Notes under the pieces: model-generated | What the model was told of the DNA's origin: nothing | Seen by the model: the letters and a program-made list of their open reading frames with translations, nothing else | The model's database searches: none | Source of the DNA: a virus | Lineage: Duplodnaviria; Heunggongvirae; Uroviricota; Caudoviricetes | Virus record (IMG/VR): IMGVR_UViG_2548876950_000004 | Coordinates: 1-13,411 of that record | DNA: 13,411 nucleotides | Reading direction: 5' to 3' (one strand) | Position numbers and translations under genes: made by a program | In this document: piece by piece, positions 1-13,411 of the stretch | How positions within the stretch are numbered: position 1 is the stretch's first letter | How the letters are laid out: each line of letters begins with the position of its first letter

Positions 1-54
1 CTGGCAGCCTGAGTTCACAGATAAAACACTCTCCAGGAAACCCGGGGCGGTTCA
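1..54 (-). mobile_element. Terminal inverted repeat of an IS3-family insertion sequence (element body lies left of the window)
   Basis: Positions 2-54 are the exact reverse complement of 13359-13411. Read inward the end begins TGAACCGCCCCGGG, the TG...-type terminus I recall for IS3-family elements such as IS629. The identity runs to the window edge and stops abruptly at 54/55. Confidence 0.5.
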
Positions 55-157
55 AAACGCCCATGATTTTACAGGCTTTTGATACGTTGCTGAGTTCTTC
101 AGCCAGATTGAGCAAACCGGCTTTGTGTTTGATAACGGGATTGGTAGTATGAAGCAT
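55..157 (-). pseudogene. N-terminal fragment of an HTH-type protein, truncated at the IS junction
   Basis: ATG at 155-157 (reverse strand) preceded by GAGGT. Translation MLHTTNPVIKHKAGLLNLAEELSNVSKACKIMGV then runs straight into the IS-end sequence. The LAEELS-VSKACKIMGV stretch looks like the first helices of an HTH motif. Confidence 0.35.
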
Positions 158-280
158 GAGAGTTACCTCGTGTTTTGTATAAGGATTCGACACCCATATC
201 AAAACCGGTAACTCTCAACCTTTCAAGGCTCAGTGTCAGATCAAGTCGCGACTAATACACTCAATTCCATCATAAACTTC

Positions 281-409
281 TCAGTTGTTAGCTTTTGCCG
301 AACTGGAAAGCGCCTGTTTAAACTCACTGAAGCTGAGAGCTTCTTCGCCTTCGGCAAGGCCTTCGAAGTATTCTTCGTAAGCCTTTTTCATGATTGTGTC
401 GAAATCCAT
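281..409 (-). CDS. Small hypothetical protein, 42 aa (possibly YdaG-like)
   Basis: ATG at 407-409 (reverse strand) with AGGTGA 5 nt upstream; translation MDFDTIMKKAYEEYFEGLAEGEEALSFSEFKQALSSSAKANN, stop at 281-283. Below the 60-aa ORF-track cutoff. Sits upstream of the repressor like the small genes of Rac-type prophages. Confidence 0.4.
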   Translation of the reverse strand: MDFDTIMKKAYEEYFEGLAEGEEALSFSEFKQALSSSAKANN

Positions 410-419
410 ATCACTCACC

Positions 420-566
420 TTAGTTTCTTTCCAACCAGCGACGTGCGCCAGCTTCGGTTTTAAACGATTTGCTTTTGGTATACGTCATGGCGGTGAATGT
501 GCCGTCCTGATTGGGAAACACGCCACATACCAGAGATTCGTTGTTGCCAAGATCGATAGTATCCAT
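420..566 (-). CDS. Small hypothetical protein, 48 aa (possibly YdaF-like)
   Basis: Internal start MDTIDLGNNESLVCGVFPNQDGTF... of the 420..629 ORF, with GAGGT 4-5 nt upstream. The longer 69-aa form has no obvious ribosome-binding site. Confidence 0.4.
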   Translation of the reverse strand: MDTIDLGNNESLVCGVFPNQDGTFTAMTYTKSKSFKTEAGARRWLERN

Positions 567-816
567 GTTGACCTCATTTCCCCTTAACGCCGGGTGGCGG
601 AACGTTTTATCTACTGCGCTTTGTATCAATCAACAACTGCCGTCATGTTCGTATGCCTCAGGCTGGCTACTTAGCCCTGTTCAGTGGCTGGATAACTCGA
701 GGTATTGTCCAGCCGTTCTCTGGTGGGGCGTTGTTTGGATATGCTTATTAAACACAATGCGTTTTCTTATGTAAACACGAAATGTGTTTTGTGGTGAGTG
801 TCATATGATGATGGTA

Positions 817-841
817 CAAAAAAGCCCGCTGATAGCGGGCT
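817..841 (-). terminator. Intrinsic terminator downstream of the repressor gene
   Basis: Hairpin AGCCCGCT-GAT-AGCGGGCT (823-841) flanked by an A-run on the plus strand (817-822), which is a U-run after the hairpin on the minus strand. Confidence 0.6.
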
Positions 842-871
842 GATTGGCATATTACTGTGATAGCAAGATCA

Positions 872-1291
872 TTACTCCGGTGGGGGATTATCTTTAAGCC
901 TGCCTCTCAAATATTTTTCTACATACTCATCGATTTCTTTTAGCCGGACTTCAAATAGCTCAATCATTCGTTGTTGTTCTGAGCCAGGTAGCTGGTTAAA
1001 CAACTCAAGAAGTTTTCGTTGGGATTCATTTAACCACAATTCAGAAGATTCCTGTTCTCCAAATAGGAGCTCAGGAGGAGATATGCCAAGTGCCTTTCCC
1101 AATACGACAGCGTCATGCACTCCAACATTTCTGCTGCCCGCCTCATAGTTACCTATACGCGATTGCGTCCATCCGCAGATTTCAGCAAGTTTTCCTTGAG
1201 ATAAACCAAGCTTCTGCCTGCGCTCTTTAAGACGCATTGCAATTTTGTCATTGAGCCTACTAGCGGCAATTTTTTCGTTTTCTTTTTCCAT
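872..1291 (-). CDS. CI-like prophage repressor, XRE-family HTH, 139 aa, no S24 peptidase domain
   Basis: HTH segment LGLSQGKLAEICGWTQSRIGNYEAG; divergently oriented to a Cro-like gene across a 96-bp operator region; C-terminal part is charged/coiled-coil like with no Ser-Lys autocleavage domain. Confidence 0.8.
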   Translation of the reverse strand: MEKENEKIAASRLNDKIAMRLKERRQKLGLSQGKLAEICGWTQSRIGNYEAGSRNVGVHDAVVLGKALGISPPELLFGEQESSELWLNESQRKLLELFNQLPGSEQQRMIELFEVRLKEIDEYVEKYLRGRLKDNPPPE

Positions 1292-1387
1292 TGCATCCTT
1301 GTATCACGAATCGTGATTTACATAAAACACAAAACAGCTTGACCATATAACACAAGGTGTGTTTAAAATTGTCATCGGAGGTTTTCA
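1292..1387. promoter_or_regulatory. Immunity-switch operator/promoter region between divergent repressor and cro-like genes
   Basis: Contains palindrome ATCACGA-A-TCGTGAT (1303-1317), imperfect palindrome AACACA-AGG-TGTGTT (1349-1363) and a TTGACC -35-like hexamer (1336-1341). Confidence 0.6.
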
Positions 1388-1630
1388 ATGAACAAAATTT
1401 CAACATATCGAAAACAGCTTGGGCTGTCTCAAAGACAACTTGCTGTTCAGTTAGGGTGGATACAAAGCCGACTGGCAAATTACGAAGCAAATTTTCGTAC
1501 CCCTGGACTAGAGGAGTGCAGAAAAATTGTTTCTACCCTTAATCGGCTTGGCGCTCATTGTGGACTTGACGATGTATTCCCCCCAGACGGTAAGCATAGC
1601 GAAAACAGCATAGGAGCGGTTGATTCATGA
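1388..1630 (+). CDS. Cro-like HTH regulator, 80 aa (YdaS-like)
   Basis: GGAGG 6 nt upstream of the ATG. HTH LGLSQRQLAVQLGWIQSRLANYEA shares the GW-QSR-NYEA recognition-helix motif with the repressor. Stop overlaps the next start (ATGA at 1627-1630). Confidence 0.75.
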   Translation: MNKISTYRKQLGLSQRQLAVQLGWIQSRLANYEANFRTPGLEECRKIVSTLNRLGAHCGLDDVFPPDGKHSENSIGAVDS

Positions 1631-2049
1631 AAATCAGGCATGAGCACATCGAATCAGTGTTGTTAGCCCTGGCAGCCGAAAAAGGGCAGGCGTGGGTCGC
1701 TAACGCAATTACTGAAGAATATCTGCGCCAGGGGGGCGGCGAATTGCCCCTTGTACCAGGCAAGGACTGGAACAATCAGCAGAATATCTATCACCGTTGG
1801 TTGAAAGGTGAAACGAAAGCGCAAAGGGAAAAAATTCAGAAACTGATCCCTGCGGTTCTGGCAATTCTTCCGCGCGAGCTGCGTCACCGACTCTGCATCT
1901 TCGATACCCTGGAACGCCGTGCATTACTGGCGGCGCAGGAAGCGTTGAGTACGGCAATTGATGCGCATGATGATGCAGTCCAGGCCGTTTACCGGAAAGC
2001 ACATTTCAGCGGTGGTGGGTCGCCCGGCGATTCTGTCGTAGTGCATTGA
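1627..2049 (+). CDS. YdaT/CII-like prophage regulatory protein, 140 aa
   Basis: Translationally coupled to the cro-like gene; N-terminus MKIRHEHIE and the position after cro match my recollection of the Rac ydaS-ydaT arrangement. Identity is from recalled family features only. Confidence 0.5.
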   Translation: MKIRHEHIESVLLALAAEKGQAWVANAITEEYLRQGGGELPLVPGKDWNNQQNIYHRWLKGETKAQREKIQKLIPAVLAILPRELRHRLCIFDTLERRALLAAQEALSTAIDAHDDAVQAVYRKAHFSGGGSPGDSVVVH

Positions 2050-2126
2050 TTGAAATTAATCGTGCCGGATTGTTTTGTTCGGTATCAGTTAAATGTAACG
2101 CTGCGAGCGTTACAAGGTGAAAACAA

Positions 2127-2909
2127 ATGGCTTCAAACTGGATAAAGCTCGAGGTTATTACGCCGGATAAGCCGGAAATATTCAGGCTTGCTGAGATTCT
2201 GAATATTGATCCAGATGCCGCATTAGGGAAGGTTATTCGCTTCTGGGCATGGGCGGATCAACAAATGATAGACGGTAATGCAGATTGTAACGCTCGCGGC
2301 GTTACAAAAAGTGCAATAGATCGCATCACTTTTATGGCTGGTTTTGCTGATGCGTTAATTCAGGTTGGATGGCTGATCGAAAATGACGGTGGGCTTTCTC
2401 TACCTAACTTTGAACGTCATAACGGGAAAAGCTCTAAAAAACGGGCGGTTACAAACGAGCGAGTAACAAAAATACGCGAACTGCAACGAAAAGGTAACGC
2501 TGCCAGCGTTACACAAACGGATCAAAAAGCGTTACCAGAGGAAGAGGAAGATATAAATACTGATCTCCCCCTAAATCCCCCTCGCCAAAAACGAGCGTCT
2601 AAAAAATTCGAGCCGGAGGCTATCGAGCTGCCTGACTGGTTGCCGGAAACACTCTGGCATGAGTGGTTTCAGTTCAGGCAGGCATTGCGAAAACCGATTC
2701 GAACGGAGCAGGGCGCTAACGGGGCGATACGGGAACTGGAAAAATTCCGTCAGCAGGGTTTTACACCTGAGCAGGTGATTCGACACAGCATCGCCAATGA
2801 ATACCAGGGCCTGTTCGCGCCGAAAGGTGTTCGGCCTGAGACGTTGCTCCGACAGGTTAACACCGTCTCGTTGCCGGACAGTGCGATCCCGCCAGGCTTC
2901 AGGGGGTAA
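2127..2909 (+). CDS. Replication initiation/primosomal protein, DnaT-like C-terminus (YdaU-like), 260 aa
   Basis: AGGTGA ribosome-binding site; sits directly upstream of the DnaC-like gene, as in the dnaT-dnaC and lambda O-P arrangements; C-terminal W/F-rich segment DWLPETLWHEWFQFRQALRKP; gene body carries repeated palindromes. Confidence 0.55.
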   Translation: MASNWIKLEVITPDKPEIFRLAEILNIDPDAALGKVIRFWAWADQQMIDGNADCNARGVTKSAIDRITFMAGFADALIQVGWLIENDGGLSLPNFERHNGKSSKKRAVTNERVTKIRELQRKGNAASVTQTDQKALPEEEEDINTDLPLNPPRQKRASKKFEPEAIELPDWLPETLWHEWFQFRQALRKPIRTEQGANGAIRELEKFRQQGFTPEQVIRHSIANEYQGLFAPKGVRPETLLRQVNTVSLPDSAIPPGFRG

Positions 2910-2915
2910 CGGACC

Positions 2916-3662
2916 ATGAAAAATATTGCGACAGGCGGTGTTCTTGAACGTATCCGTAAGCTGGCTCCGCAGCATGTAACCGCGCCGTACCGGACAGTGG
3001 ACGAGTGGCGAGAGTGGCAGCTTGCAGAAGGGCGAAAACGTAGCGAGGAGATCAACCGCCTGAATCGTCAGTTGCGGGTGGAAAAAATTCTGAATCGCTC
3101 AGGCATCCAGCCGTTGCATCGTAAATGCTCGTTTGCAAATTACCAGGTGCAGAACGACGGCCAGCGATACGCGTTAAGCCAGGCGAAATCCATCGCCGAT
3201 GAACTGATGACCGGGGGTACAAATTTTGCGTTCAGCGGAAAACCTGGTACCGGGAAGAACCACTTAGCGGCAGCTATCGGAAATCGCCTGCTGAAAGATG
3301 GCCAGACAGTGATTGTGGTTACTGTGGCTGATGTTATGAGTGCCCTGCATGCCAGCTATGACGACGGACAGTCAGGCGAAAAATTTTTGCGGGAACTGTG
3401 CGAAGTGGATCTGCTGGTTCTTGATGAGATTGGCATTCAGCGCGAGACGAAAAACGAGCAGGTGGTACTGCACCAGATTATTGATCGACGGACAGCGTCG
3501 ATGCGTAGCGTGGGAATGCTGACAAATCTGAACTATGAGGCCATGAAAACATTGCTCGGTGAGCGGATTATGGATCGCATGACCATGAACGGCGGACGCT
3601 GGGTGAATTTTAACTGGGAGAGCTGGCGTCCGAATGTCGTCCAGCCAGGAATTGCGAAGTAA
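2916..3662 (+). CDS. DnaC-like helicase loader, AAA+ ATPase (IstB/DnaC family), 248 aa
   Basis: Walker [16 protein letters not shown] and Walker [10 protein letters not shown]; size and placement after the initiator gene. Confidence 0.85.
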
Positions 3663-3684
3663 TTTTTACCGGGAGAAAAATTTA

Positions 3685-4446
3685 ATGGAGACTGTTTTTG
3701 ACGCACTGAAAGCAATGGGAAAAGCCACATCCATAGAACTTGCTGCGCGACTTGATATCAGTCGTGAAGAGGTACTGAACGAGCTGTGGGAACTGAAAAA
3801 AGCTGGTTTTGTTGATAAAACCGCGTACACCTGGCGCGTGGCTGAAAACAACGTTCAGCAGGAACAGTCAGCGCAGGCAGAACTGCCGGAAGAAACCACC
3901 ACAGCAACAGTAGCGAAAATCTCAGAGTGCGATTTAACCGCAACGATTGAACAACGCGGACCACAAACGGCTGATGAGCTGGCTACATTGTTTGATACCA
4001 CATCACGCAAAGTGTCTTCAACGCTGGCAATGGCAATCAGCAAAGGTCGTCTGATTCGCGTAAATCAGGGCGGTAAATTTCGTTACTGCATACCGGGCGA
4101 TAATTTACCAGCAGAGCCGAAAGCAGCATCGGTAGCGGAAACTGATGGTAAAGCCTTTCCTCAGCCTGCATGTGTTGCGTTACCAGTACAGGAAGCTGCA
4201 ACACAGGAAGATATTAAAACAGAAACGATGGCGGACATTGTGCAGTCGCTGCCATCGTTTACTGCAACGCGATCTGATGATTTGATTTTGCCATCGCTGC
4301 ATTTGGCAAACCGCGAACTGCGTCGGGCGAAAAATCATGTCCAGAAGTGGGAGCGTGTCTGCGCCGCGCTGCGTGAGTTGAACAAGCACAGGGATATTGT
4401 ACGACAGATTACTGATTCTTCCCGCCATGTTGCATCGGAAAAGTGA
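3685..4446 (+). CDS. Hypothetical phage protein with two winged-helix-like segments, about 253 aa
   Basis: Start chosen at ATG 3685 (GGGAGA upstream) to avoid overlap with the DnaC-like gene. Segments [30 protein letters not shown] and [35 protein letters not shown] resemble winged-helix DNA-binding folds. Confidence 0.55.
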
Positions 4447-4461
4447 TTGCCGGAGGCGCTT

Positions 4462-4854
4462 ATGGCAAAAGTATTTACACAAGAAGAGCGGGAAGAAGTG
4501 AAGGCGCGCATTGTGGAATTCGTGCGCCTGAGCGGACGAGAAACTTTTCGACAACTGGCAGATAAAACGGGTGTCAGTAAGACCGCTATTCGTCGTTTAT
4601 CTGGTGCGCTTGCGGCCAGTGGTGATGTCTGGCTCTCTGGTTGCGGGGTATTTCCATCAGAGCAGGCGTATCGCGTATGGCGTAAGACACCGGAGAAGGC
4701 TGCTGACCCGACACTGATTCGAAAGTTACCTGACGGAGAAATACGTCGTTACAACAGACGGCAGAACATAATTTGTCGTGAGTGCCGCCAGAGCGAAGTT
4801 ATGCAGCGTGTGCTGGCGTTCTATCGGGGAAACTTTCAGGAGGTGATGTTGTGA
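4462..4854 (+). CDS. Hypothetical HTH-containing protein, about 130 aa
   Basis: GGAGG 5 nt upstream of ATG 4462; HTH-like FRQLADKTGVSKTAIRRLSG; stop overlaps the next gene's start. Confidence 0.5.
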   Translation: MAKVFTQEEREEVKARIVEFVRLSGRETFRQLADKTGVSKTAIRRLSGALAASGDVWLSGCGVFPSEQAYRVWRKTPEKAADPTLIRKLPDGEIRRYNRRQNIICRECRQSEVMQRVLAFYRGNFQEVML

Positions 4855-5324
4855 GTGAGTCGGCTACCATTCTCGACATGTGCTGTGGCAGTCGCATGTT
4901 CTGGTTTGATAAGAATGACGAACGGGCGATATTTAGCGATATCAGAAAAGAAGAGCACACATTGTGTGATGGACGACGCCTGATTATCAGTCCTGACCTG
5001 ATAGCAGATTTTCGAGCATTACCATTTGCAGACGCATCGTTTCCGGTTGTTGTATTCGACCCTCCGCATCTTGAGCGTGTTGGTGATAACGCCTGGATGG
5101 GAAAGAAATATGGACGGCTGAATAAAGATACCTGGCGAGATGATTTGCGGCAGGGATTTAAAGAAGCCTTTCGTGTGTTGTGCCCACGCGGCGTTCTGAT
5201 TTTTAAATGGAATGAAACGCAAATACCTGTTCGCCAGATATTGGTACTGACCGACAGAAAACCTGTTATCGGTCAACGAACAGGAAAAAACGATAAAACC
5301 CACTGGATTATTTTTATGAAATAG
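4851..5324 (+). CDS. Putative small SAM-dependent DNA methyltransferase (N6-adenine type, DPPH motif), about 157 aa
   Basis: GTG start at 4851 with AGGAGG 6 nt upstream. Motif I-like ILDMCCGSRMF followed by motif IV-like VVFDPPHL, the order seen in gamma-type amino-methyltransferases. Confidence 0.45.
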   Translation: MSESATILDMCCGSRMFWFDKNDERAIFSDIRKEEHTLCDGRRLIISPDLIADFRALPFADASFPVVVFDPPHLERVGDNAWMGKKYGRLNKDTWRDDLRQGFKEAFRVLCPRGVLIFKWNETQIPVRQILVLTDRKPVIGQRTGKNDKTHWIIFMK

Positions 5325-5572
5325 GCATCCAGTGAGTAGGTTCGTAAGGTTACAGATGCGTATATCTGAATAATTAAATTCAGTTCTGTAAATAAAATTT
5401 AATCCTTAACCGGAGGGATTCCTGCACCCTCAGAACATCAGGAGACCGCCCGAAAGGGCGGTAATGAAAAATGGCTGAATGAACCAAATGGCTACAAAAC
5501 ACGATTACCGGAATTGAAACGGTAGTAGACGATAAATCGTTTGTATGTGATGAAATAGTATTCAAAATCGAT

Positions 5573-5938
5573 GTGGTTAAAAACGTACTTACCGCATTTA
5601 AAGTCGCGCTGGTATCGCTGGAAGCCGAACCGGTGACATGGCGATATCGCTACGTGAGAAAAGGCGTTACGAACTTTCAGGAGAAGCCGTGGGTTGGTGA
5701 CTGGAAATATGTACCGACAAAAGAGGATTGCAACGACAGGCCGAACTATGAAATTCAGGCGTTATTCACGGCCCAGCCTGTGCCACTGACACCCGAAGGA
5801 TTGATTAAAGCGGTGCGCTTCTATGAACAGGTTAAGAGTGAAAATCCGCCAGTCGAAACCGGAGCATGGAAAGACGCTGTTGACTGGGTGCTCAAAGAGG
5901 CTTGTCAGGCTGTAAACATTGGCATCAAAGGAGAGTGA
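5573..5938 (+). CDS. Hypothetical protein, 121 aa, start uncertain
   Basis: Long ORF with no internal Met; GTG start at 5573 lacks a clear ribosome-binding site. Leads a co-oriented, tightly packed cluster. Confidence 0.45.
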   Translation: MVKNVLTAFKVALVSLEAEPVTWRYRYVRKGVTNFQEKPWVGDWKYVPTKEDCNDRPNYEIQALFTAQPVPLTPEGLIKAVRFYEQVKSENPPVETGAWKDAVDWVLKEACQAVNIGIKGE

Positions 5939-5939
5939 G

Positions 5940-6131
5940 ATGAACGGACAAATCTCAATTGTTCGACCGGGAGCATGTGACGATTGCGAGATACGAATGA
6001 TTATTCGTCTGGCGATGGGGAAAACAATAACTGCTCTCATTACTCCAGAAAATCTCGCATTAGCATTAACAGGAAAGTCAGACCTGCCAGTAGAGCTAAA
6101 GCTGCGAAATGTTGAGATTAAGGTGAAATAG
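5940..6131 (+). CDS. Hypothetical protein, 63 aa
   Basis: ATG at 5940 with AAGGAGAG 5 nt upstream, two bases after the upstream stop; ends 2 bp before the next gene. Confidence 0.5.
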   Translation: MNGQISIVRPGACDDCEIRMIIRLAMGKTITALITPENLALALTGKSDLPVELKLRNVEIKVK

Positions 6132-6133
6132 CT

Positions 6134-7555
6134 ATGACCACTATTACCAAAGAGCGACTGCTGACAATCAAGCAGTGGCGCGAAACATACGGACCTGGTA
6201 GCAACGTTGTACTGCCAGCAGAAGAAGCGGAAGAACTGGCACGGATTGCACTGGCATCATTGGAAGCAGATCCAGTTAAACGAGTTAACTCAGATCAGAT
6301 GCACCGAGTCTGCTTAGAAGCTAATCGCTATTTAGATAAATATGACGCGATGGCGAAAGAGGTAAATAAGTTGCTTGGACGCATCGCCCCGCCAGCGCCA
6401 GTATTTAACGGCGAATACGGTGACGCATATCAGGGCGCTCGTGAAGACCTGTCCATCTGGAAACGGCGAGCGCTTGAAGCTGATGAGCACGTTCGGCGAC
6501 TGGAGCAAATCAATGACCACATGGTGAAAGAGGCGCAGGGAGAATCACGCATGGGCGAGCCTGTAATACGTGAGCCAGCACCGGTAGTGCCTGAAGAAGC
6601 AACTCCGGAAAACGTAGAAATGCTCTCTGGCTATGTTTCAACGTACAAATTAACCGATAGCGAGCGCGATATTGCTGCCGAAATATGGAACGCCTGCCGC
6701 GCCGCCATGCTTCAGTCAGGAAACTTTCGGGAAAACAAGAATTCGTCAACCAATAATTTTCGGGAAATCGAGGAAACGTCAACCAACTATCCGGCAATTC
6801 CTAGTGAGGTGTTGTCCGCAATCCTGAAGGTTGCCAGGATTCGTGCCGATTTCGATGATTTTGACGGTGACAGGCGAGGTATCGGTGATTGTCTGGATGA
6901 GGCTGAGCAAGAGCTTATCGTTACCATTAACAAATATGCCAGTCAGTTGGCAGCAGAACCGATAGCGACTAATGACGTTCGAGAGCAGCAGACAGCCGTT
7001 CCGCCAGTTCCGGAAATACAGGCTGATGTCGCGCAAGCAATTGAAAATCTCAAGCAGAAGCTAGTGGAATGTAATCGCTATAACTACTGCGCAGATGCAG
7101 TTAAAGGCGTAGAGGATGCCTGCCGTGCTGTTAGCTATAGCCAAGCCGACAATCAACCAGCATCTGGCAACCAGGCTGCCGAATCCAATCGCGGTAATGA
7201 GTGGACCGGCAATCCTGATATTGATAACGCCATCATCATGCTCGACCGCATAGATACGCTGGAAAATTGCGATGATGACCGTATTGAGGCTGTTAAGGCT
7301 GTTTTGCGTAGACTGGCTGGCAACTATCCGGTAACTCCGGATGGTTGGATAAGCTGTAGTGAGCGAATGCCGAATACCAAAACAGCCGTTCTTGTTGCCG
7401 TGGAGTTTGACAGGAAAGGTGACTGGCGAATGAAATGGGCTACTTACATCCCGGGGCATCCTGACGCTAATGATGGGTGGATAATTCCTGGTGCGTCGTG
7501 GAAACCGTCACACTGGATGCCGCTACCAGAACCGCCGCAGGAGGTGCGCCAATGA
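6134..7555 (+). CDS. Large hypothetical phage protein with DUF551-like C-terminus, 473 aa
   Basis: AAGGTGA ribosome-binding site; acidic, low-complexity central region; C-terminal WISCSERMP...SHWMPLPEPP matches the recalled DUF551 signature. Confidence 0.6.
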   Translation: MTTITKERLLTIKQWRETYGPGSNVVLPAEEAEELARIALASLEADPVKRVNSDQMHRVCLEANRYLDKYDAMAKEVNKLLGRIAPPAPVFNGEYGDAYQGAREDLSIWKRRALEADEHVRRLEQINDHMVKEAQGESRMGEPVIREPAPVVPEEATPENVEMLSGYVSTYKLTDSERDIAAEIWNACRAAMLQSGNFRENKNSSTNNFREIEETSTNYPAIPSEVLSAILKVARIRADFDDFDGDRRGIGDCLDEAEQELIVTINKYASQLAAEPIATNDVREQQTAVPPVPEIQADVAQAIENLKQKLVECNRYNYCADAVKGVEDACRAVSYSQADNQPASGNQAAESNRGNEWTGNPDIDNAIIMLDRIDTLENCDDDRIEAVKAVLRRLAGNYPVTPDGWISCSERMPNTKTAVLVAVEFDRKGDWRMKWATYIPGHPDANDGWIIPGASWKPSHWMPLPEPPQEVRQ

Positions 7556-7635
7556 TCTGGCCTGAAGCCTTTGCAATTACAGGCGTTGCTATAGCTATTG
7601 ATTTTTTAGTATATGTTATTTGTCGGTGGGGGTAA
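7552..7635 (+). CDS. Tiny hydrophobic peptide, 27 aa
   Basis: ATG overlaps the upstream stop (ATGA) with GGAGGTG upstream; translation MIWPEAFAITGVAIAIDFLVYVICRWG is a single predicted transmembrane helix. Below ORF-track cutoff. Confidence 0.4.
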   Translation: MIWPEAFAITGVAIAIDFLVYVICRWG

Positions 7636-7670
7636 AAACGTTCGCCGGGATTCACACCAAAGGAGGGAAT

Positions 7671-7775
7671 ATGTCGGATGATATTTCACTGGCAATGGAA
7701 GGTGCGCTGGCTGTTATTGCTGTTGTGGGCGTTTACTGCCTGGTTGTGTTTTTGATGGATCGACTAGGGAACTGA
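7671..7775 (+). CDS. Tiny hydrophobic peptide, 34 aa
   Basis: AAAGGAGGGAAT-ATG; translation MSDDISLAMEGALAVIAVVGVYCLVVFLMDRLGN with a central hydrophobic helix. Below ORF-track cutoff. Confidence 0.45.
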   Translation: MSDDISLAMEGALAVIAVVGVYCLVVFLMDRLGN

Positions 7776-7783
7776 ATTCATTA

Positions 7784-7805
7784 CGATATGGGAATTCCCA
7801 TATCG
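7784..7805. repeat. Perfect 22-bp palindrome CGATATGGGAATTCCCATATCG
   Basis: Exact self-complement with a central GAATTC, 9 bp after the 34-aa peptide stop and upstream of the hok locus; no T-run follows, so not a classical terminator. Confidence 0.7.
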
Positions 7806-7909
7806 GGTAAAAACGGTTTGCGGTAAAGCGAGAGTTAAGTAGAATTGCTGCGGGTGCTTGAGGCTATCTGCCTCGGGCATGCCACCGTAAGGCAGACAGA
7901 GAAAAGCCC

Positions 7910-7975
7910 CAGTTAACATTACGCGTCCGGCAAGACGCTTAACATTAATCTGAGGCCATATCTATGCTCTACACA
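7910..7975 (-). ncRNA. Expected position of the Sok-like antisense RNA of the hok locus (approximate, not delimited)
   Basis: Placed by analogy with hok/sok architecture, where the antisense RNA overlaps the leader and upstream start region. Promoter and 3' end could not be pinned from sequence. Confidence 0.25.
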
Positions 7976-8020
7976 CGTAGGTTAGCCTCTTACGTGCCGA
8001 AAGGCAAGGAGAAGCAGGCT

Positions 8021-8176
8021 ATGAAGCAGCAAAAGGCGATGTTAATCGCCCTGATCGTCATCTGTTTAACCGTCATAGTGACGGCACTGGTAACGAGGAA
8101 AGACCTCTGCGAGGTACGAATCCGAACCGGTCAGACGGAGGTCGCTGTCTTCGTAGACTACGAATCTGAGAAGTAA
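8021..8176 (+). CDS. hok: Hok/Gef-family type I toxin, 51 aa; in-frame upstream start at 7964 gives a 70-aa Mok-like form
   Basis: MKQQKAMLIALIVICLTVIVTALVTRKDLCEVRIRTGQTEVAVFVDYESEK has the hallmark Hok/Gef transmembrane segment and TRKDLCEV...GQTEVA motif; AGGAG upstream of ATG 8021. Confidence 0.8.
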   Translation: MKQQKAMLIALIVICLTVIVTALVTRKDLCEVRIRTGQTEVAVFVDYESEK

Positions 8177-8244
8177 GAGACCAGGCGGGGGAGTAATCTC
8201 CCGCCACCTCTGATGTGTCAGGCATCCTCAACGCACCCGCACTA

Positions 8245-8267
8245 AACCCGCTTCGGCGGGTTTTTTG
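8245..8267 (+). terminator. Intrinsic terminator at the 3' end of the hok transcript
   Basis: Hairpin AACCCGC-TTCG-GCGGGTT followed by TTTTTTGTT; a second GC-rich hairpin lies just upstream (about 8192-8210). Confidence 0.7.
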
Positions 8268-8451
8268 TTGCGTGCTGAATGCGCAGGGTGAAAAATAACC
8301 ATATATTTGATTATATACACAACAAAAAATAAAAGTCATTGTACCTGCACATTAAATAATCAAATATACAGCGTGAAATAAATATTTTTCAGATTAATAT
8401 TTTTGTCTCTATGTGGATATAACCGTTTGTACTTATAAACTCGGAGGCATC

Positions 8452-8664
8452 GTGGAAAAAATAAAGAAACTATTTAGTTGCAAATACGCAGTCATACGTC
8501 GTGATGACCTGTCAGTTATAGTCGAAATGGATTACTTCCCTGAAACCCCAAAATCAATGATGTATCGTAATGGTCGAAAGGCAATTTTTTTACCGATGAG
8601 GGTAAGTGACATTATGGGAAATGATAAACTGCTGGATGAATTGCGAGTCAGAGCATCCTGTTAG
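8452..8664 (+). CDS. Hypothetical protein, about 70 aa
   Basis: GTG at 8452 with GGAGG 4 nt upstream, preferred over the ATG at 8413 which lacks a ribosome-binding site; AT-rich promoter-like region upstream. Confidence 0.45.
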   Translation: MEKIKKLFSCKYAVIRRDDLSVIVEMDYFPETPKSMMYRNGRKAIFLPMRVSDIMGNDKLLDELRVRASC

Positions 8665-8735
8665 TATTGGCATTAATTCTGGTATACTACATAACGGGCT
8701 GAACACCCATTCTACTGCGCCAGCGGAGAACTACG

Positions 8736-9335
8736 ATGGCGCATATACAACTGGTCAAACAAACCTCTTCCGGATTACTTCTCCCGGCGACACCGGAGAG
8801 TTGCGATTTTTTGCATCAAATCAAAATAGGCGAGTGGATACACGCAGACTTTAAGCGTGTGCGTAACTACGCATTCCACAAGCGTTTTTTCAAACTCCTG
8901 CAACTGGGATTCGATTACTGGACTCCGGTCGGTGGGGCGATCACGCCTCGCGAACGAGAACTGCTGTCTGGTTTCGTTGATTACCTGTGCGAATCAGTTG
9001 GTCGGGAACACACGCCAGCCCTGAGTGATGCCGCAGAGCAATATCTGAATACAGTTGCGACACGCAGAACCCGGGATACGGCATTGTTAAAGTCGTTTGA
9101 GGCTTTTCGCGAGTGGGTAACCATTCAGGCTGGATTTTACACCGAACATTTTTATCCGGACGGTAGCCATGGGCGTCGGGCGAAATCCATCGCTTTTGCG
9201 AATATGGACGAAACCGAGTTTCAGCAGGTTTATAAATCTGTTCTGAATGTGCTGTGGAACTGGATTCTGTTCCGTAAATTTTCCTCTCCGGAACAAGTCG
9301 AAAATGTGGCCGCGCAGCTGCTGGAGTTTGCGTAA
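8736..9335 (+). CDS. Conserved lambdoid nin-region protein, 199 aa
   Basis: GGAGA 6 nt upstream of the ATG; stop overlaps the next start (TAATG); family assignment (DUF1367-like) is from memory only. Confidence 0.55.
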   Translation: MAHIQLVKQTSSGLLLPATPESCDFLHQIKIGEWIHADFKRVRNYAFHKRFFKLLQLGFDYWTPVGGAITPRERELLSGFVDYLCESVGREHTPALSDAAEQYLNTVATRRTRDTALLKSFEAFREWVTIQAGFYTEHFYPDGSHGRRAKSIAFANMDETEFQQVYKSVLNVLWNWILFRKFSSPEQVENVAAQLLEFA

Positions 9336-9625
9336 TGGTGGATTTACGTAAAGCGGCGCGGGGGCAGATGTGCACCGTCAGAATTCCTGGCTACTGCAAT
9401 CACGATCCGGAAACGTCTGTGCTGGCGCATTACCGACTGGCGGGAACGTGCGGAACAGCGATAAAGCCACACGATATGCAGGCAGCGATTGCCTGTAGCT
9501 CGTGCCACGATTTAATCGACGGGCGGGTAAAAACCGGCGATTACACCAAAGAAGAATTACGCCTGATGCATGCAGAAGGTGTTTTTCGCACACAAGAAAT
9601 CTGGAGAAAGGAGGGATATTTATGA
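9335..9625 (+). CDS. YbcO-like (DUF1364) cysteine-rich protein, putative nuclease, 96 aa
   Basis: Size and several cysteines (CTVRIPGYC...CGT...ACSSCHD) fit the YbcO family that sits before Q in lambdoid prophages; translationally coupled on both sides. Confidence 0.55.
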   Translation: MVDLRKAARGQMCTVRIPGYCNHDPETSVLAHYRLAGTCGTAIKPHDMQAAIACSSCHDLIDGRVKTGDYTKEELRLMHAEGVFRTQEIWRKEGYL

Positions 9626-10176
9626 TTTACCCAACGAATACAGGAAAAAGCGGAGAACACCTTCGTCTCACCACGCTGGAAAGTGTCTGGATTCAGGGAA
9701 AACTACGTATGTGGGGGCGCTGGTCGTATATTGGCGGCGGTAAGACGGGAAATATGTTTAACCAGTTGCTGACCTCTAAAAAGCTAACAAAAACGGCAAT
9801 TAATGAGGCGCTCCGGAGGATGAAAAAAGCAGGTCTGGACAAACCTGAACTTGAGGCTTTTTTGCGGGATATGATCAACGGCAAGCAAAAAAGCTGGCTG
9901 GTGCATTGTACTGATGCAGAGGCGTTATGCATTGATCGGGTGATTAGTGAAGTGCTGGCAGAACACCCAGGATTGATTTGTATCCTCCGGCAAAGATATG
10001 AAGGGCGGGGGATGAGTAAGCGCAAAATGGCTGAATTGCTAAATGATGCACACCCTGAGTGGTGTTTTCGGACGTGCTGCAGTCGGGTAGATGTATGGCT
10101 AAATCTTGCTGAATATATGCTCTATCTGCCGATGCGTGATGCATTCTCTTCCGGGTATTTAAAAACTGTCTGTTGA
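9622..10176 (+). CDS. Putative late-gene antiterminator Q, 184 aa
   Basis: Called mainly from position: last gene of the nin-like block, immediately followed by a strong promoter overlapping its stop and a short terminated leader. Strong AAAGGAGGG ribosome-binding site. Sequence family not confirmed. Confidence 0.5.
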   Translation: MIYPTNTGKSGEHLRLTTLESVWIQGKLRMWGRWSYIGGGKTGNMFNQLLTSKKLTKTAINEALRRMKKAGLDKPELEAFLRDMINGKQKSWLVHCTDAEALCIDRVISEVLAEHPGLICILRQRYEGRGMSKRKMAELLNDAHPEWCFRTCCSRVDVWLNLAEYMLYLPMRDAFSSGYLKTVC

Positions 10177-10202
10177 CTCAATCTGTTATCCGGGGCTATA
10201 TT
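10173..10202 (+). promoter_or_regulatory. PR'-like late promoter (TTGACT-N18-TATATT)
   Basis: -35 TTGACT at 10173-10178 overlaps the stop of the upstream gene; -10 TATATT at 10197-10202. Confidence 0.55.
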
Positions 10203-10264
10203 CCTCACGCGCCAGCAAAATCTGGCGTCGGGATTAGGAACCCCGGATAGAGACCGCGACAGAC

Positions 10265-10287
10265 ACACGCCGCGAGCGTGTTTTTTA
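10265..10287 (+). terminator. tR'-like intrinsic terminator ending a short (about 80 nt) leader RNA
   Basis: Hairpin ACACGC-CGCGA-GCGTGT followed by TTTTTTATT, about 60-80 nt downstream of the PR'-like promoter. Confidence 0.65.
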
Positions 10288-10449
10288 TTGTCGTATGCAC
10301 GCGCACATCTGAATTATGGTGGGGCGTATGGGGGAGCTGAAAAGCTCGCCGGTTGGTTTCCCGGTAGTTCCTAACCCTGTACGTCTCACCACCCGATGAT
10401 TAGGAACCTGACGGTGGTGATGGTTTAGAAACCACCAGAGGGCGTCATT

Positions 10450-11031
10450 ATGACAACTCAAATTTCTGTTGAAACTCTCTCCCCGATCACCCATAACCAG
10501 ATTCCTGTTATTACCACCGAACTTTTGGCGCAGTTGTACGGTGCTGGAGTTAAGAACATTCAAAATAACTACGCCAGAAATGCTGAGCGCTTTATTGAAG
10601 GAAAGCATTTTTTCAAAGTGGCTGGCGATGCCCTGAAAAATTTGCGGGTAGCTTTAAACTACTCACAAAATTTGCAACCATCTTTAAGAGGGTTACAAAT
10701 TTCCCCGAAAGCCCGCTCCCTCATCCTCTGGACAGAACGCGGAGCAGCCCGTCATGCCAAAATGCTGGAAACCGATCAGGCGTGGGATGTGTTCGAAAAG
10801 CTGGAAGACTGCTATTTCAGACAAAAGGATCCGTCAGCGCCAGTTTCATGCCAGAAAAGTTACGACACGCGAGTTCTCTGTTATCAGAGAGGCGGTGTCA
10901 CTGTTTCCACAATTCAGTTACGGGATGATGATATTGTTATTTCCCTTGAGTCATGGCTGGAACTGGCGAGAGCCAATGGTTGGTTTGTTGTTCGCAGAGA
11001 TAAACTGGTGGAAAGGTTGATGCAGCTTTAA
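10450..11031 (+). CDS. ORF6N/KilA-N-like domain protein (antirepressor-type regulator), 193 aa
   Basis: N-terminal IPVITTELLAQLYGAGVKNIQNNYARNAERFIEGKHFFKV matches the recalled ORF6N consensus (LAELYG...RN..RF...F). Confidence 0.55.
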   Translation: MTTQISVETLSPITHNQIPVITTELLAQLYGAGVKNIQNNYARNAERFIEGKHFFKVAGDALKNLRVALNYSQNLQPSLRGLQISPKARSLILWTERGAARHAKMLETDQAWDVFEKLEDCYFRQKDPSAPVSCQKSYDTRVLCYQRGGVTVSTIQLRDDDIVISLESWLELARANGWFVVRRDKLVERLMQL

Positions 11032-11128
11032 AAAAGTTCTTGCATTTTTGCACATAAACTGCTTCAATTCCTGTATGCTTCGCAAAGCTGTATCGCGAGG
11101 CGAAACGCAAGTTTTTTTCGCACAAGGA

Positions 11129-11151
11129 AGCCACCGGAAGGTGGTTTTTTT
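11129..11151 (+). terminator. Intrinsic terminator after the ORF6N gene
   Basis: Hairpin CCACC-GGAA-GGTGG followed by TTTTTTT. Confidence 0.65.
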
Positions 11152-11274
11152 GTGTCCGTAATATACAGCAGCGCAATAAATTCGCTGGTGGTTATTAATA
11201 CCGTTCTTTCAGCTTGCTGGCTTTTTCGACAAGAGTTATTGGTATGTCACGTTAACCGGAAAGGGTAAAAAGAC

Positions 11275-11472
11275 ATGCTGAAACAGCAGGATATGACAGA
11301 AACCGCCAGAGTTGTGTTTGATGAATTAAGCGTTACCGAACCGGCGACAGTCGGGGAGATTGCGCAGAATACTTACCTTTCACGCGAACGCTGCCAGTTA
11401 ATACTGACCCAGCTGGTTATGGCGGGTCTGGCAGACTATCAGTGCGGTTGTTACAGACGCATTCAGTCCTGA
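11275..11472 (+). CDS. Small putative DNA-binding protein, 65 aa
   Basis: ORF with a weak AAGGG ribosome-binding site; the VGEIAQNTYLSRERCQLILTQLVMAGL segment looks like a winged-helix/HTH. Confidence 0.4.
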   Translation: MLKQQDMTETARVVFDELSVTEPATVGEIAQNTYLSRERCQLILTQLVMAGLADYQCGCYRRIQS

Positions 11473-11505
11473 AGGCTTTTTATTTGTGGTAAATGGGCGG
11501 CTGGT

Positions 11506-11513
11506 GGGGGGGG
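11506..11513. repeat. Homopolymeric G8 tract upstream of the AraC-family gene
   Basis: Eight consecutive G (GGTGGGGGGGGCGG) about 95 bp upstream of the ATG at 11608. Confidence 0.8.
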
Positions 11514-11607
11514 CGGCACCTGTCAGTCCTTTGCTTATGTGTTGATGATAATTTACCTTTTGGGGCTATAATTGAGCTAACCAATTGCTAATGAAAGTAA
11601 AATTATA

Positions 11608-12321
11608 ATGGCTGTTGTCTGTTCAGTTATCATGGTTTGCTCCCCAATTAATATTTTTCTTGAAAAGGATACGTTGTCACTTAAGCCAGGCTCAGTCGTT
11701 CTGGCCACCAAATGCATCAGGGAGCTTTTCCTTATGCATTATGGCAAAGTTAAAATTGTCGATATAAGCGAATCCGTCGTAAGTCAATATCTGGAAAGTC
11801 AGCATAAGCTGACGAGGACTCGTCTGACTGACATTCCGCTTTACCTGTTGCTGGAACCCAACAATCCTGCGTTGGCTGCGGCTTTAATTACCAGCCAGGG
11901 ATTTTCCGGAGAGGTCACGGATATGTTTCTTATGATGGCCTGCCTGTCTCTGTTTGAAACAGATGAACGGATGTCATTGTTTTTAAGTGGATGTTTATCC
12001 AGCATAAGTGCCAAAGTCAGGGCGATAATTCAGACAGATATATCAGCAAGCTGGACGCTTGGTGCGATTGCTCTACAGTTGCATATGAGTGAGAGTTTGT
12101 TAAAGACAAAACTGAAAAATGAAGGGGGCATGTTCAGTCGCTTGTTGCTGGAAGAGCGGATGCGTGTTGCTGTAAATATGTTATGTTCCCGGCATGGATA
12201 TGGACAGGCTGTAGCAGAAAAATGCGGTTATTCAAGCAGGTCCTACTTTATTTCTGTATTTCACCGCTATTATGGCTTCCCGCCAGACAGATATGTATCC
12301 AGGCAAGGGCTTGATTATTGA
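11608..12321 (+). CDS. AraC/XylS-family transcriptional regulator, 237 aa
   Basis: C-terminal double-HTH typical of the family (SWTLGAIALQLHMSESLLKTKLK...YGQAVAEKCGYSSRSYFISVFHRYYGFPP); located in the cargo slot between Q and the lysis genes. Confidence 0.75.
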   Translation: MAVVCSVIMVCSPINIFLEKDTLSLKPGSVVLATKCIRELFLMHYGKVKIVDISESVVSQYLESQHKLTRTRLTDIPLYLLLEPNNPALAAALITSQGFSGEVTDMFLMMACLSLFETDERMSLFLSGCLSSISAKVRAIIQTDISASWTLGAIALQLHMSESLLKTKLKNEGGMFSRLLLEERMRVAVNMLCSRHGYGQAVAEKCGYSSRSYFISVFHRYYGFPPDRYVSRQGLDY

Positions 12322-12349
12322 TTTTCATCTGATTATTATTTTTTGGCTC

Positions 12350-12425
12350 GGCCCTTTAGCTCAGTGGTGAGAGCGAGCGACTCATAATCGCCAGGTCGCT
12401 GGTTCAAATCCAGCAAGGGCCACCA
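12350..12425 (+). tRNA. tRNA with CAU anticodon (Ile2/Met type, ileX-like)
   Basis: Cloverleaf by hand: acceptor GGCCCTT/AAGGGCC, anticodon loop CTCATAA, T-loop TTCAAAT, 3' CCA. Close to the host ileX sequence as I recall it. Confidence 0.7.
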
Positions 12426-12426
12426 A

Positions 12427-12503
12427 CCGCCACTAGCTCATCAGGAAAGAGCGTCAACCCTTTAAGTTGAGTGTGCGAGGTTCGAGTCCCCGGTGGCGGT
12501 CCA
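12427..12503 (+). tRNA. Atypical tRNA-like gene, anticodon UUU (Lys-like), possibly a pseudo-tRNA
   Basis: Acceptor CCGCCAC/GTGGCGG with CCA end, D-arm and TTCGAGT T-loop present, but C at position 33, a C1:G72 start and one T-stem mismatch. Confidence 0.45.
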
Positions 12504-12505
12504 GT

Positions 12506-12581
<76 letters not shown>

Positions 12582-12584
12582 TAT

Positions 12585-12659
<75 letters not shown>

Positions 12660-12866
12660 GTTAGAGTCTTTCAGTCTGCGATGATGGGAAATCCCGGAGT
12701 GACTGAAAGACGTTTAGGTTATGAATGATCGCTTTTTTTTGCAAAATTGCTGTGCAGAAATACTAACCTTCGGGCAGGCGATCATTCATAAGCACTCTGC
12801 TTTTATTCCGATTAACTGTGGGTGGTTTGTTGGATAGAGTGCTTTCCTGACTGTAGATCCAATTTC

Positions 12867-12891
12867 GCCCGCTTTTGCGGGCTTTTCTTTT
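12867..12891 (+). terminator. Intrinsic terminator downstream of the tRNA cluster
   Basis: Hairpin GCCCGC-TTTT-GCGGGC followed by TTTTCTTTT. Confidence 0.7.
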
Positions 12892-12951
12892 CAAATCCCT
12901 TTCATCTCTCAGTGTAAAACTACGCCATCCGTTATTTGCGGAGGTGAGGCT

Positions 12952-13167
12952 ATGAAATCCATGGACAAAATTTCAACGGGCATTGCCTACGGCACCTCCG
13001 CAGGCAGTGCTGGCTACTGGTTTTTACAGTGGCTTGATCAAGTCAGTCCGTCACAGTGGGCTGCGATTGGTGTACTGGGGAGTCTGATTCTGGGCTTCCT
13101 GACTTATCTGACAAATCTGTACTTCAAAATCAGAGAAGACAAGCGTAAGGCTGCACGGGGAGAGTAA
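12952..13167 (+). CDS. Phage 21-type class II holin (pinholin) with dual-start motif, 71 aa
   Basis: [27 protein letters not shown]...[13 protein letters not shown] closely matches S21 as I recall it, including the M-K-S-M dual start (12952 and 12961); GGAGGTGAGG ribosome-binding site. Confidence 0.85.
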
Positions 13168-13171
13168 TTCA

Positions 13172-13358
13172 ATGACTCAAAACTATGAAGTGATTGTGAA
13201 AGGGATCCGCAATTTTGAGAATAAAGTTACGGTAACTTTAGCGTTACGGGACAAAAAACGCTTTGACGGTGAAATTTTTGACCTGGACATCTCGCTGGAC
13301 CGTGTTGAAGGTGCCGCGCTGGAGTTTTATGAGGCAGCAGCCAGAAGGAGCATCAGAC
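13172..13358 (+). pseudogene. Lysis-region gene (possibly YdfR-like) truncated by the IS insertion
   Basis: ATG at 13172 with GGGGAGAG upstream; ORF MTQNYEVIVKGIRNFENKVTV... runs in frame into the IS-end sequence at 13359 with no stop before the window edge. Family name from memory only. Confidence 0.4.
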
Positions 13359-13411
13359 TGAACCGCCCCGGGTTTCCTGGAGAGTGTTTTATCTGTGAAC
13401 TCAGGCTGCCA
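13359..13411 (+). mobile_element. Terminal inverted repeat of an IS3-family insertion sequence (element body lies right of the window)
   Basis: TGAACCGCCCCGGGTTTCCTGGAGAG..., the exact reverse complement of window positions 2-54. Confidence 0.5.

Follow-up and report, generated by a model that had tools for sequence, protein, structure and literature searches.

This study concerns a group of inverted repeats in a 13,411-nt stretch of viral DNA (IMG/VR record IMGVR_UViG_2548876950_000004, positions 1 to 13,411; the window in the following), which corresponds to the part of a Rac/CP-933P-like lambdoid prophage of E. coli that is devoted to immunity and replication. A 21-bp palindrome occurs in three copies, designated S0, S1 and S2, immediately upstream of and within the gene of a replication initiation protein (the initiator). 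The palindromes are not a product of chance, are under selection as DNA, are confined to this gene and its homologues, occur exclusively together with the N-terminal domain of the initiator and change in concert within a locus. On balance, these properties favor the interpretation that the palindromes are binding sites of the initiator itself and that, together with an adjoining unwinding element, they would constitute a replication origin inside the initiator gene, comparable to lambda ori in gene O.

S0 is a perfect palindrome in the non-coding region between ydaT and the initiator gene; it ends 13 nt before the ATG at position 2127 and directly 5′ of the AGGTGA ribosome binding site. S1, which is also perfect, and S2, with a single mismatch at the outermost base, are located in the same frame of the open reading frame (ORF) 2127-2909. 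The coordinates of the three copies as well as their spacing of 192 and 207 bp had been given in a preliminary description made from the sequence alone, and they were confirmed here. The pattern TGTAACGC-N5-GCGTTACA was scanned with up to 3 mismatches over the whole 13.4-kb window and over 200 dinucleotide-preserving shuffles of it. Three matches were obtained in the window compared with 0.04 expected, and none of the 200 shuffles gave three. For the hexamer core GTAACG, 16 occurrences were counted in the window compared with 4.8 expected, 7 of them inside 2095-2535. The initiator gene is associated with several dyad-symmetric repeats in total, i.e. the three palindromes, one lone half-site and one near half-site, all located within 2094-2535.

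The preliminary description also listed a degenerate copy at 2448-2468, which had to be discarded as a conserved element. It shows more than 3 mismatches to the pattern, its codons are not constrained in the family as a whole (GTT encodes V113 in just 9 of 38 cases), and in a comparison of 54 distinct close E. coli variants it was the most variable of all named segments, with position 2465 differing in 40 of the 54. Missing from the same description were the near half-site at 2275-2281, the lone half-site at 2529-2535 and a polypurine tract at 2537-2551. In 13 of the 54 close variants position 2279 is C, resulting in a perfect GTAACGC at 2275-2281, and an exact GTAACGC is present at the corresponding position of the homologous loci L003, L005, L008 and L010 (+148 relative to the gene). 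Additionally, a terminator-like consensus match was observed on the minus strand of S2 at 2494-2512 (a stem followed by CTTTTCGTTG); such matches are no more common in this region than in shuffled sequences.

Homologous loci were collected from one genome per species, which resulted in 73 loci from Enterobacterales, other Pseudomonadota, Planctomycetota, Verrucomicrobiota and a few other phyla with protein identities between 31 and 95%; 46 non-redundant loci were used for most counts. In most of the 73 loci GTAACGC-N5-GCGTTAC was found at the same two places of the gene, at about +148 (+136 to +172) for S1 and at about +335 to +412 for S2, and the core shared by the homologous loci is GTAACG-N7-CGTTAC. 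An S2 with at least 6 of 7 arm pairs is present in 37 of the 46 non-redundant loci. A counterpart of S0 was found at −32 to −44 in the Enterobacterales loci L001-L004, L006, L008 and L009, and loci of other phyla are without it. When each locus was scanned with its own arm sequence, 86 matches were located in the gene zone from −100 to +800 (41 kb in total) and only 1 in 234 kb of flanking sequence. The possibility raised in the preliminary description, that related prophages lack the palindromes, was checked in this way and clearly does not apply.

Some Verrucomicrobiota loci (L043-L048, L053, L055, L058, L059, L061 and L063) are without clean palindromes and most of them are without a polypurine tract. 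What they retain is a TGTAACGC half-site at −57 to −69 as well as CGTTACA half-sites at about +148, +355, +526 and +700; judged from these sequences, the organisation appears to be more degenerate or different. An antisense ORF 'family' overlying the initiator gene in 28 loci is most simply explained as an artefact of the conserved sense-strand sequence and not as a gene.

Several observations indicate that selection acts on the DNA and not on the encoded peptide. Among the 37 loci with S2, the site is read in frame 1 in 26, in frame 0 in 6 and in frame 2 in 5, with the translations G-N-A-x-S-V-T, V-T-x-x-A-L and S-R-x-x-R-D, respectively, and with no stop codons. At S1, the codon choice is nearly invariant: the codon of Gly50 is GGT in 37 of 41 cases compared with 41 of 180 at four other invariant glycine positions, that of Asn51 is AAC in 36 of 37, and that of Val59 is GTT in 36 of 44 compared with 143 of 443 valines elsewhere. 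The six cases of GTG at Val59 are exactly the loci with GTCACG arms. In two metagenome-assembled loci, L067 and L072, the initiator ORF is shortened to 117 and 127 amino acids, respectively, and an S2-type cluster together with the tract is located past the stop codon (3392-3470 in L067 and 3355-3415 in L072); these are either real non-coding copies or the result of frameshifted genes or assembly errors. Due to the occurrence of S2 in three frames, the fixed synonymous codons and the non-coding copies, the protein motif N-A-x-S-V-T is therefore regarded as the translation of the DNA site and not as its cause. The preliminary description was right in stating that codon repetition does not explain the palindromes, and stronger ground for this statement is provided by the conserved protein motifs N-A-x-S-V-T and A-L-P-E-E-E, which are themselves translated DNA elements.

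Nearly all changes inside S0, S1 and S2 in the 54 close E. coli variants fall into the 5-nt spacers: in S0 they affect 2101-2105, i.e. the spacer and the innermost arm base, and in S1 only the spacer positions 2297 and 2298. In an alignment of 80 sites from the homologous loci the core pairs 2-7 (GTAACG/CGTTAC) are kept in at least 91%, changes of the G-U type are rare, and non-pairing mismatches are common at the innermost and outermost positions. Judged from these alignments, it is the sequence itself that is conserved and not pairing alone.

A second conserved element is located directly downstream of S2. Across phyla and in every half-site class, a half-site is followed by a polypurine tract in the form GCGTTACC(A/T)AGAGAAG or GCGTTACC(A/T)-AGAGAAGAGAAGAGAAG. 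The half-site in front of the tract follows the class of the locus (GCGTGAC, GCGCAAC, GCGGAC or CCGGAC), and the tract is constant. In the relatives it is a (GAGAA)n or (GAGGAA)n repeat of 15-56 nt at the same place, the form in the window being (GAGGAA)n; it outscores every other 260-nt segment of its locus in 37 of the 46 loci, and its A+T content is 60-70% in hosts of 32-45% A+T. Arginine codons were counted in the ten alignment columns following the motif A-L-P, which yielded 70 AGR and 0 CGN codons compared with 71 AGR to 420 CGN elsewhere in the same genes (p about 7e-50). The protein motif A-L-P-R-E-E-K-R-R is therefore also regarded as a reflection of the DNA. GATC (Dam) sites are present on either side of the half-site and tract (2520-2523 and within 2562-2581), and elements similar to the C-rich element at the latter position, with the form CCCCC-N3-5-CCCCC, were seen in L003, L007, L009, L022, L029 and L041 as well as in K-12.

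The half-sites of a locus change in concert. In the GTCACG..CGTGAC class, which comprises eight loci, the variant is found in S1 and S2 and also in the lone half-site; in the left arm it replaces an amino acid (N to H), and in the right arm the corresponding substitution is synonymous (GTT to GTG). This class switch is marked by pair 4-18, which changes from A-T to C-G in 11 of the 80 sites and is the only covarying pair. Likewise, GTTGCG is present at both sites of L034 and CTAACG at both sites of L052, GTCCGG was found in L072, and GTCCGC is shared by L067 and Salmonella phage epsilon15. In epsilon15, gene 42 (gp42; L157 2554-2606 and 2833-2900) contains eight GTCCGC/GCGGAC half-sites in two direct-direct-inverted-inverted clusters, the first at +54, +65, +78 and +100 (steps of 11, 13 and 22 bp) and the second, which adjoins CAGAGAAGAGAAGAGAAGAGAAGA, at +333, +344, +357 and +368 (steps of 11, 13 and 11 bp). 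The GenBank record of epsilon15 has no annotated origin. Partnerless extra half-sites at 11-12 bp steps were frequent in the scan of the loci with their own arms.

The half-site classes GTAACG, GTCACG, GTTGCG, GTCCGC and GTCCGG track subfamilies of the N-terminal domain, and the same polypurine tract is kept in all of them. The residues of a basic helix of the initiator (107-116, encoded by 2445-2474) differ by class: R-A-x-T-x-[KR]-R-V was found in the GTAACG class, R-x-L-x-x-x-R-[KQ]-Q in the GTCACG class and R-A-x-D-x-x-R-K-R in the GTCCGC loci, so that T109 and V113 of the 'R-A-x-T-x-x-R-V' helix differ between the GTAACG and the GTCACG class. In L033, an N-terminus of the GTAACG type occurs together with a helix and sites of the GTCACG type. 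The basic helix may be considered a candidate specificity determinant, to which L033 points as a lead only.

Which protein accompanies the palindromes was analyzed by all-against-all clustering of the ORFs within 3 kb in the 46 loci. No protein family other than the initiator occurs in all 46; a cI/LexA-like repressor is encoded in 21 of them and YdaT in few. The downstream replication genes differ as well, with a primase/helicase in 11 loci, a 276-amino acid protein in 9 and a DnaC-like protein in 7. The palindromes travel only with the N-terminal domain of the initiator, homologues of which are fused to YdaU-like, DnaT-like (PF17948) and other C-termini.

The initiator of the window consists of a predicted winged-helix-like domain (amino acids 1 to about 100), a basic helix (103-122), a disordered linker (125-151) and a C-terminal domain. 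In the structure prediction S1 corresponds to a low-confidence loop (49-57) between helices 2 and 3 of the winged-helix domain, and S2, the lone half-site and the tract correspond to the DNA coding for the disordered linker. According to this model, loop and linker are the places where the protein best tolerates a fixed DNA sequence. The initiator is a mosaic: its C-terminal third is common to ydaU of the K-12 Rac prophage, and the N-terminal 135 residues and the palindrome-bearing DNA are not. The region 2652-2920 is about 94% identical to K-12 ydaU/ydaV, and the homology to K-12 ydaU starts at about 2650. No relation of the N-terminal domain to the DUF1376-type N-terminal domain of K-12 YdaU was detected by profile comparison (hhalign probability 2%), and it had no Pfam match. 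Homology to other ydaU types begins either at 2548, directly after the tract (86% class), or at about 2650 (K-12 class), and the conserved tract therefore coincides with a recombination junction of N- and C-terminal modules, which may help to explain the mosaicism. In one O26 strain (L155), ydaU is split by an IS3-family element.

Table 1. Sites, associated elements and genes in the replication region of the window (positions of the window; translations in one-letter code).
Feature	Position	Strand	Description
S0	2094-2114	.	TGTAACGCTGCGAGCGTTACA; TGTAACGC-TGCGA-GCGTTACA; perfect; ydaT-initiator intergenic region
Extra left half-site GTAATGC	2275-2281	+	one mismatch to GTAACGC; 12 nt before S1
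S1	2286-2306	.	TGTAACGCTCGCGGCGTTACA; TGTAACGC-TCGCG-GCGTTACA; codons 54-60, C-N-A-R-G-V-T
S2	2493-2513	.	GGTAACGCTGCCAGCGTTACA; GGTAACGC-TGCCA-GCGTTACA; codons 123-129, G-N-A-A-S-V-T; disordered linker
Lone half-site GCGTTAC	2529-2535	+	read A-L-P; directly before tract
Polypurine tract	2537-2551	+	AGAGGAAGAGGAAGA; read E-E-E-E-D; candidate DNA-unwinding element; followed by AT-rich TATAAATA
GATC-T-CCCCC-TAAAT-CCCCC element	2562-2581	+	read P-L-N-P-P; common to K-12 Rac ydaU and several loci
cI-like repressor	872-1291	-	
Cro/YdaS-like helix-turn-helix protein	1388-1630		
YdaT	1627-2049		cII analogue
Replication initiator	2127-2909	+	260 amino acids; phrog_2509 'replication initiation protein', E = 3.8e-87
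DnaC-like helicase loader, YdaV type	2916-3662	+	NF009043, E = 1e-152; IstB_IS21; phrog_50

In the mechanism proposed here, a dimer of the winged-helix-like N-terminal domain would bind to two inverted GTAACG half-sites (GTAACG-N7-CGTTAC), each site covering 19-21 bp. Such dimers would occupy S0, S1, S2 and the lone half-site, and the bound complex would destabilize the adjoining AT-rich polypurine tract, which would serve as the unwinding element. The C-terminal domain would recruit the DnaC-like loader, its presumed partner, together with the DnaB of the host, and transcription from a cro-side promoter would pass through the region as in lambda. S0, with its position at the ribosome binding site and its restriction to Enterobacterales, probably adds autoregulation. 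From the comparative data we infer initiator binding, unwinding at the tract and origin activity. A modular logic, in which the N-terminal domain and the repeats are exchanged and the C-terminal domain is kept, is supported by K-12 Rac ydaU, because it carries another N-terminal domain and other linker repeats on the same C-terminal domain.

The analogy to lambda had already been drawn in the preliminary description. It is favored by the comparative evidence, namely the conservation at the DNA level, the confinement to the gene, the link to the N-terminal domain, the concerted change and the adjoining tract; the arrangement differs, in that the sites do not form a tight array in the linker-coding region. 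The following points weigh against an origin bound by the initiator. The two or three sites are about 200 bp apart and do not form a tight iteron array as in classical origins, and the spacing (189-231 bp) is not constant in helical phase. The tract of the window is short (15 nt) and no more AT-rich than its surroundings (0.53 compared with 0.52). The designation of the protein as an initiator depends on PHROG naming and synteny, and neither in Pfam nor in PDB does it have a relative. For the most part the concerted variants go with the clades, so that there are few independent switches. Finally, hairpins of −7.6 to −9.4 kcal/mol are predicted for the single strands, which would make a structural role energetically feasible.

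A more far-reaching version of an origin within the initiator gene appears doubtful. It would be a self-contained origin cassette distributed across phyla, in which the DNA dictates the protein, so that the most conserved 'protein motifs', N-A-x-S-V-T and A-L-P-R-E-E-K-R-R, would merely reflect the half-sites of the initiator and an invariant (GAGAA)n tract. This tract would act as a host-independent unwinding element (e.g. as a polypurine mirror repeat prone to H-DNA or triplex formation) and the palindromes would be joined by looping, a bipartite arrangement distinct from the lambda O-some on tandem iterons.

Among the alternatives to initiator-bound origin sites, the one that survives best, unlikely as it appears, is that the palindromes are solely autoregulatory operators, at which the initiator or another phage protein represses the replication operon at the level of transcription or translation, with the origin being located elsewhere. 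Such sequences most commonly serve as palindromic operators for dimers, S0 extends directly to the ribosome binding site of the initiator, and its counterpart at −32 to −44 is found repeatedly in the Enterobacterales. However, S0 is the least conserved of the sites and absent outside this order, whereas the intragenic sites and the unit of half-site and tract are kept across phyla. Sites 160 and 370 bp inside the gene and beside an AT-rich tract fit simple repression poorly, and no sigma-70-like promoter was found at 2050-2126.

A role of the palindromes as hairpins, either as stem-loops of the messenger RNA with an effect on stability or translation or as single-stranded DNA hairpins or cruciforms that serve as priming or loading signals, is considered quite improbable. 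Each site folds into a stem of 8-9 bp with a loop of 3-5 nt at the energies given above (z about −4), the spacers vary freely, and the arm changes at pair 4-18 are compensatory in 11 sites, with a covariation score above those of all 500 shuffles. Pairing alone, however, requires neither that the arm sequence is kept across phyla nor that the same variant is present at all sites of a locus. Half-sites that stand alone are conserved as well, and the rarity of G-U-type changes and the frequency of inner and outer mismatches described above are likewise not expected for a structural element. The direct-direct-inverted-inverted arrays of epsilon15 with their 11-bp steps and non-complementary spacers also argue against hairpins. 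In a search of 1200-3200 against Rfam (E <= 1) no match to the sites was obtained, the only hit being a chance transfer-messenger RNA fragment elsewhere; on the coding strand no T-run follows the stems, and terminator-like sites do not exceed their number in shuffles.

Binding by an adjacent helix-turn-helix regulator (Cro-like, cI-like or YdaT/cII-like), which the preliminary description had offered as an alternative, is very improbable. In its favor, three helix-turn-helix proteins are encoded within 1.2 kb upstream and S0 is located just downstream of ydaT. The box of YdaT determined by footprinting is TTGATT-N6-AATCAA (PMC9986795, PMC11879457); a canonical copy, TTGATTCATGAAAATCAG, spans the ydaT start at 1620-1637, which is also its position in Rac and CP-933P. 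The palindromes do not fit this box, and binding of YdaT to them is very unlikely for that reason. The mapped operators of the cI and the Cro analogue of CP-933P are also different palindromes, with the consensus GTTTAGTAA, in the intergenic region between these two genes (PMC8630535), and no regulator family is common to all loci that keep the palindromes. A second, weaker repeat similar to the YdaT box, TTGATTGAAATTAATCGT, was observed at 2046-2063 with 2 mismatches, overlapping the ydaT stop codon 31 nt upstream of S0; YdaT might also act at the entrance to the replication genes. A host factor was considered as well and rejected: the boxes of TyrR, LexA and similar regulators do not fit the spacing, and the conservation across phyla argues against a host-specific protein. 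That the palindromes serve no purpose as DNA and arose by chance or through repetition of the protein motif N-A-x-S-V-T has a practically negligible probability: both intragenic copies do share one frame and one motif conserved in the protein alignment, but one copy is non-coding, S2 occurs in three frames, the third codon positions are fixed and no shuffle reproduced the three matches.

Repeats with dyad symmetry that are bound by the initiator inside its own gene are established for lambda ori in gene O, for gene 18 of P22 and for other lambdoid phages. The region analyzed here would resemble lambda ori in such repeats, in the exchangeable module of N-terminal domain and repeats, in the presumed pairing of the C-terminal domain with a downstream helicase-loading gene and in the transcription from a cro-side early promoter. 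It also has a purine-biased segment beside the last repeat, a candidate counterpart of the AT-rich region of lambda, which is AT-rich relative to the host in most loci. It differs in that the protein has no sequence relation to lambda O (no match to Phage_rep_O), in that two or three palindromes 192 and 207 bp apart with lone half-sites take the place of four adjacent 19-bp iterons, in that one site lies in the coding region of the DNA-binding domain and one upstream of the gene, and in that a polypurine tract of pentamer repeats, which is kept across phyla, is the putative unwinding element. For oriL in gene 38 of Bacillus phage SPP1 and similar origins in rep genes of lactococcal phages, the gene of the origin-binding protein contains its own binding repeats beside an AT-rich region; these are direct repeats, and the proteins belong to the replisome organiser family and the phages to other hosts. 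Iterons of the plasmid type are tandem direct repeats of 17-22 bp with a spacing of about 22 bp, whereas the repeats described here are inverted and about 200 bp apart; only the extra half-sites at 11-12 bp steps resemble such iterons. The YdaT operator is palindromic and belongs to the same prophage module, but differs in sequence and spacing and is bound by a POU-like helix-turn-helix tetramer.

Another close system is the ydaU-ydaV/oriJ region of the K-12 Rac prophage, which shares the order of repressor, ydaS, ydaT, initiator, ydaV and DUF1627 with a near-identical ydaV, a DNA identity of 94% in the C-terminal third of the initiator, and the GATC-C-tract element that follows the linker. 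The two differ in the DUF1376-type N-terminal domain of K-12 YdaU, in the absence of TGTAACGC palindromes from it and in its linker, which contains repeats of its own, TGTTCAAAC (two copies) and GTTTGAACA. In the K-12 linker (L154 2286-2375) the repeat set comprises AGATGTTCAAACA, AGGTGTTCAAACA, GTGTTTGAACA (inverted) and ATGTTGAAG, followed by the shared GATCCCCCCCTAAATCCCCCCC. With their location at the place of S2 and the tract, these repeats are candidate oriJ iterons. The CP-933P papers name only 'replication initiation genes' downstream of ydaT, and neither a description of the elements reported here nor an experiment demonstrating binding, unwinding or origin activity of this family was found in the literature searched, which omits most subscription journals.

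In the window, the initiator gene is located between the cII analogue ydaT and the gene of the DnaC-like loader, and 'replication initiation protein' is its best PHROG assignment. Apart from PHROG it had no match in Pfam (E <= 0.01, including Phage_rep_O) or NCBIfam and no relative in PDB. DUF1627, DUF977 and later lambdoid genes follow downstream of the loader. A chicken isolate is 100% identical over 2040-2920, and 1422 of 5426 complete E. coli genomes had a match. A search of plasmid records for this initiator as a replicon yielded two phage-like records of 41-52 kb only. The copy in O157:H7 strains is taken to be CP-933P on the basis of 95.5% identity and the shared gene order.

By analogy, the region would probably work like lambda ori/O and other phage origins within genes, with a protein outside the lambda O and DUF1376 YdaU families. 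If this is true, the origin and the recognition code of the initiator would be pinned down for a widespread replication module without a Pfam family, which is present in about a quarter of the complete E. coli genomes including O157:H7 strains, in phages such as epsilon15, TL-2011b and Xanthomonas CP2, and in prophages of Pseudomonadota, Planctomycetota and Verrucomicrobiota. No principle is overturned, as origins inside initiator genes have been known since lambda. The natural specificity variants represent ready-made controls. Moreover, the region is a clear case of a constraint at the DNA level that shapes conserved 'protein motifs', which matters for the reading of conservation in phage replication proteins.

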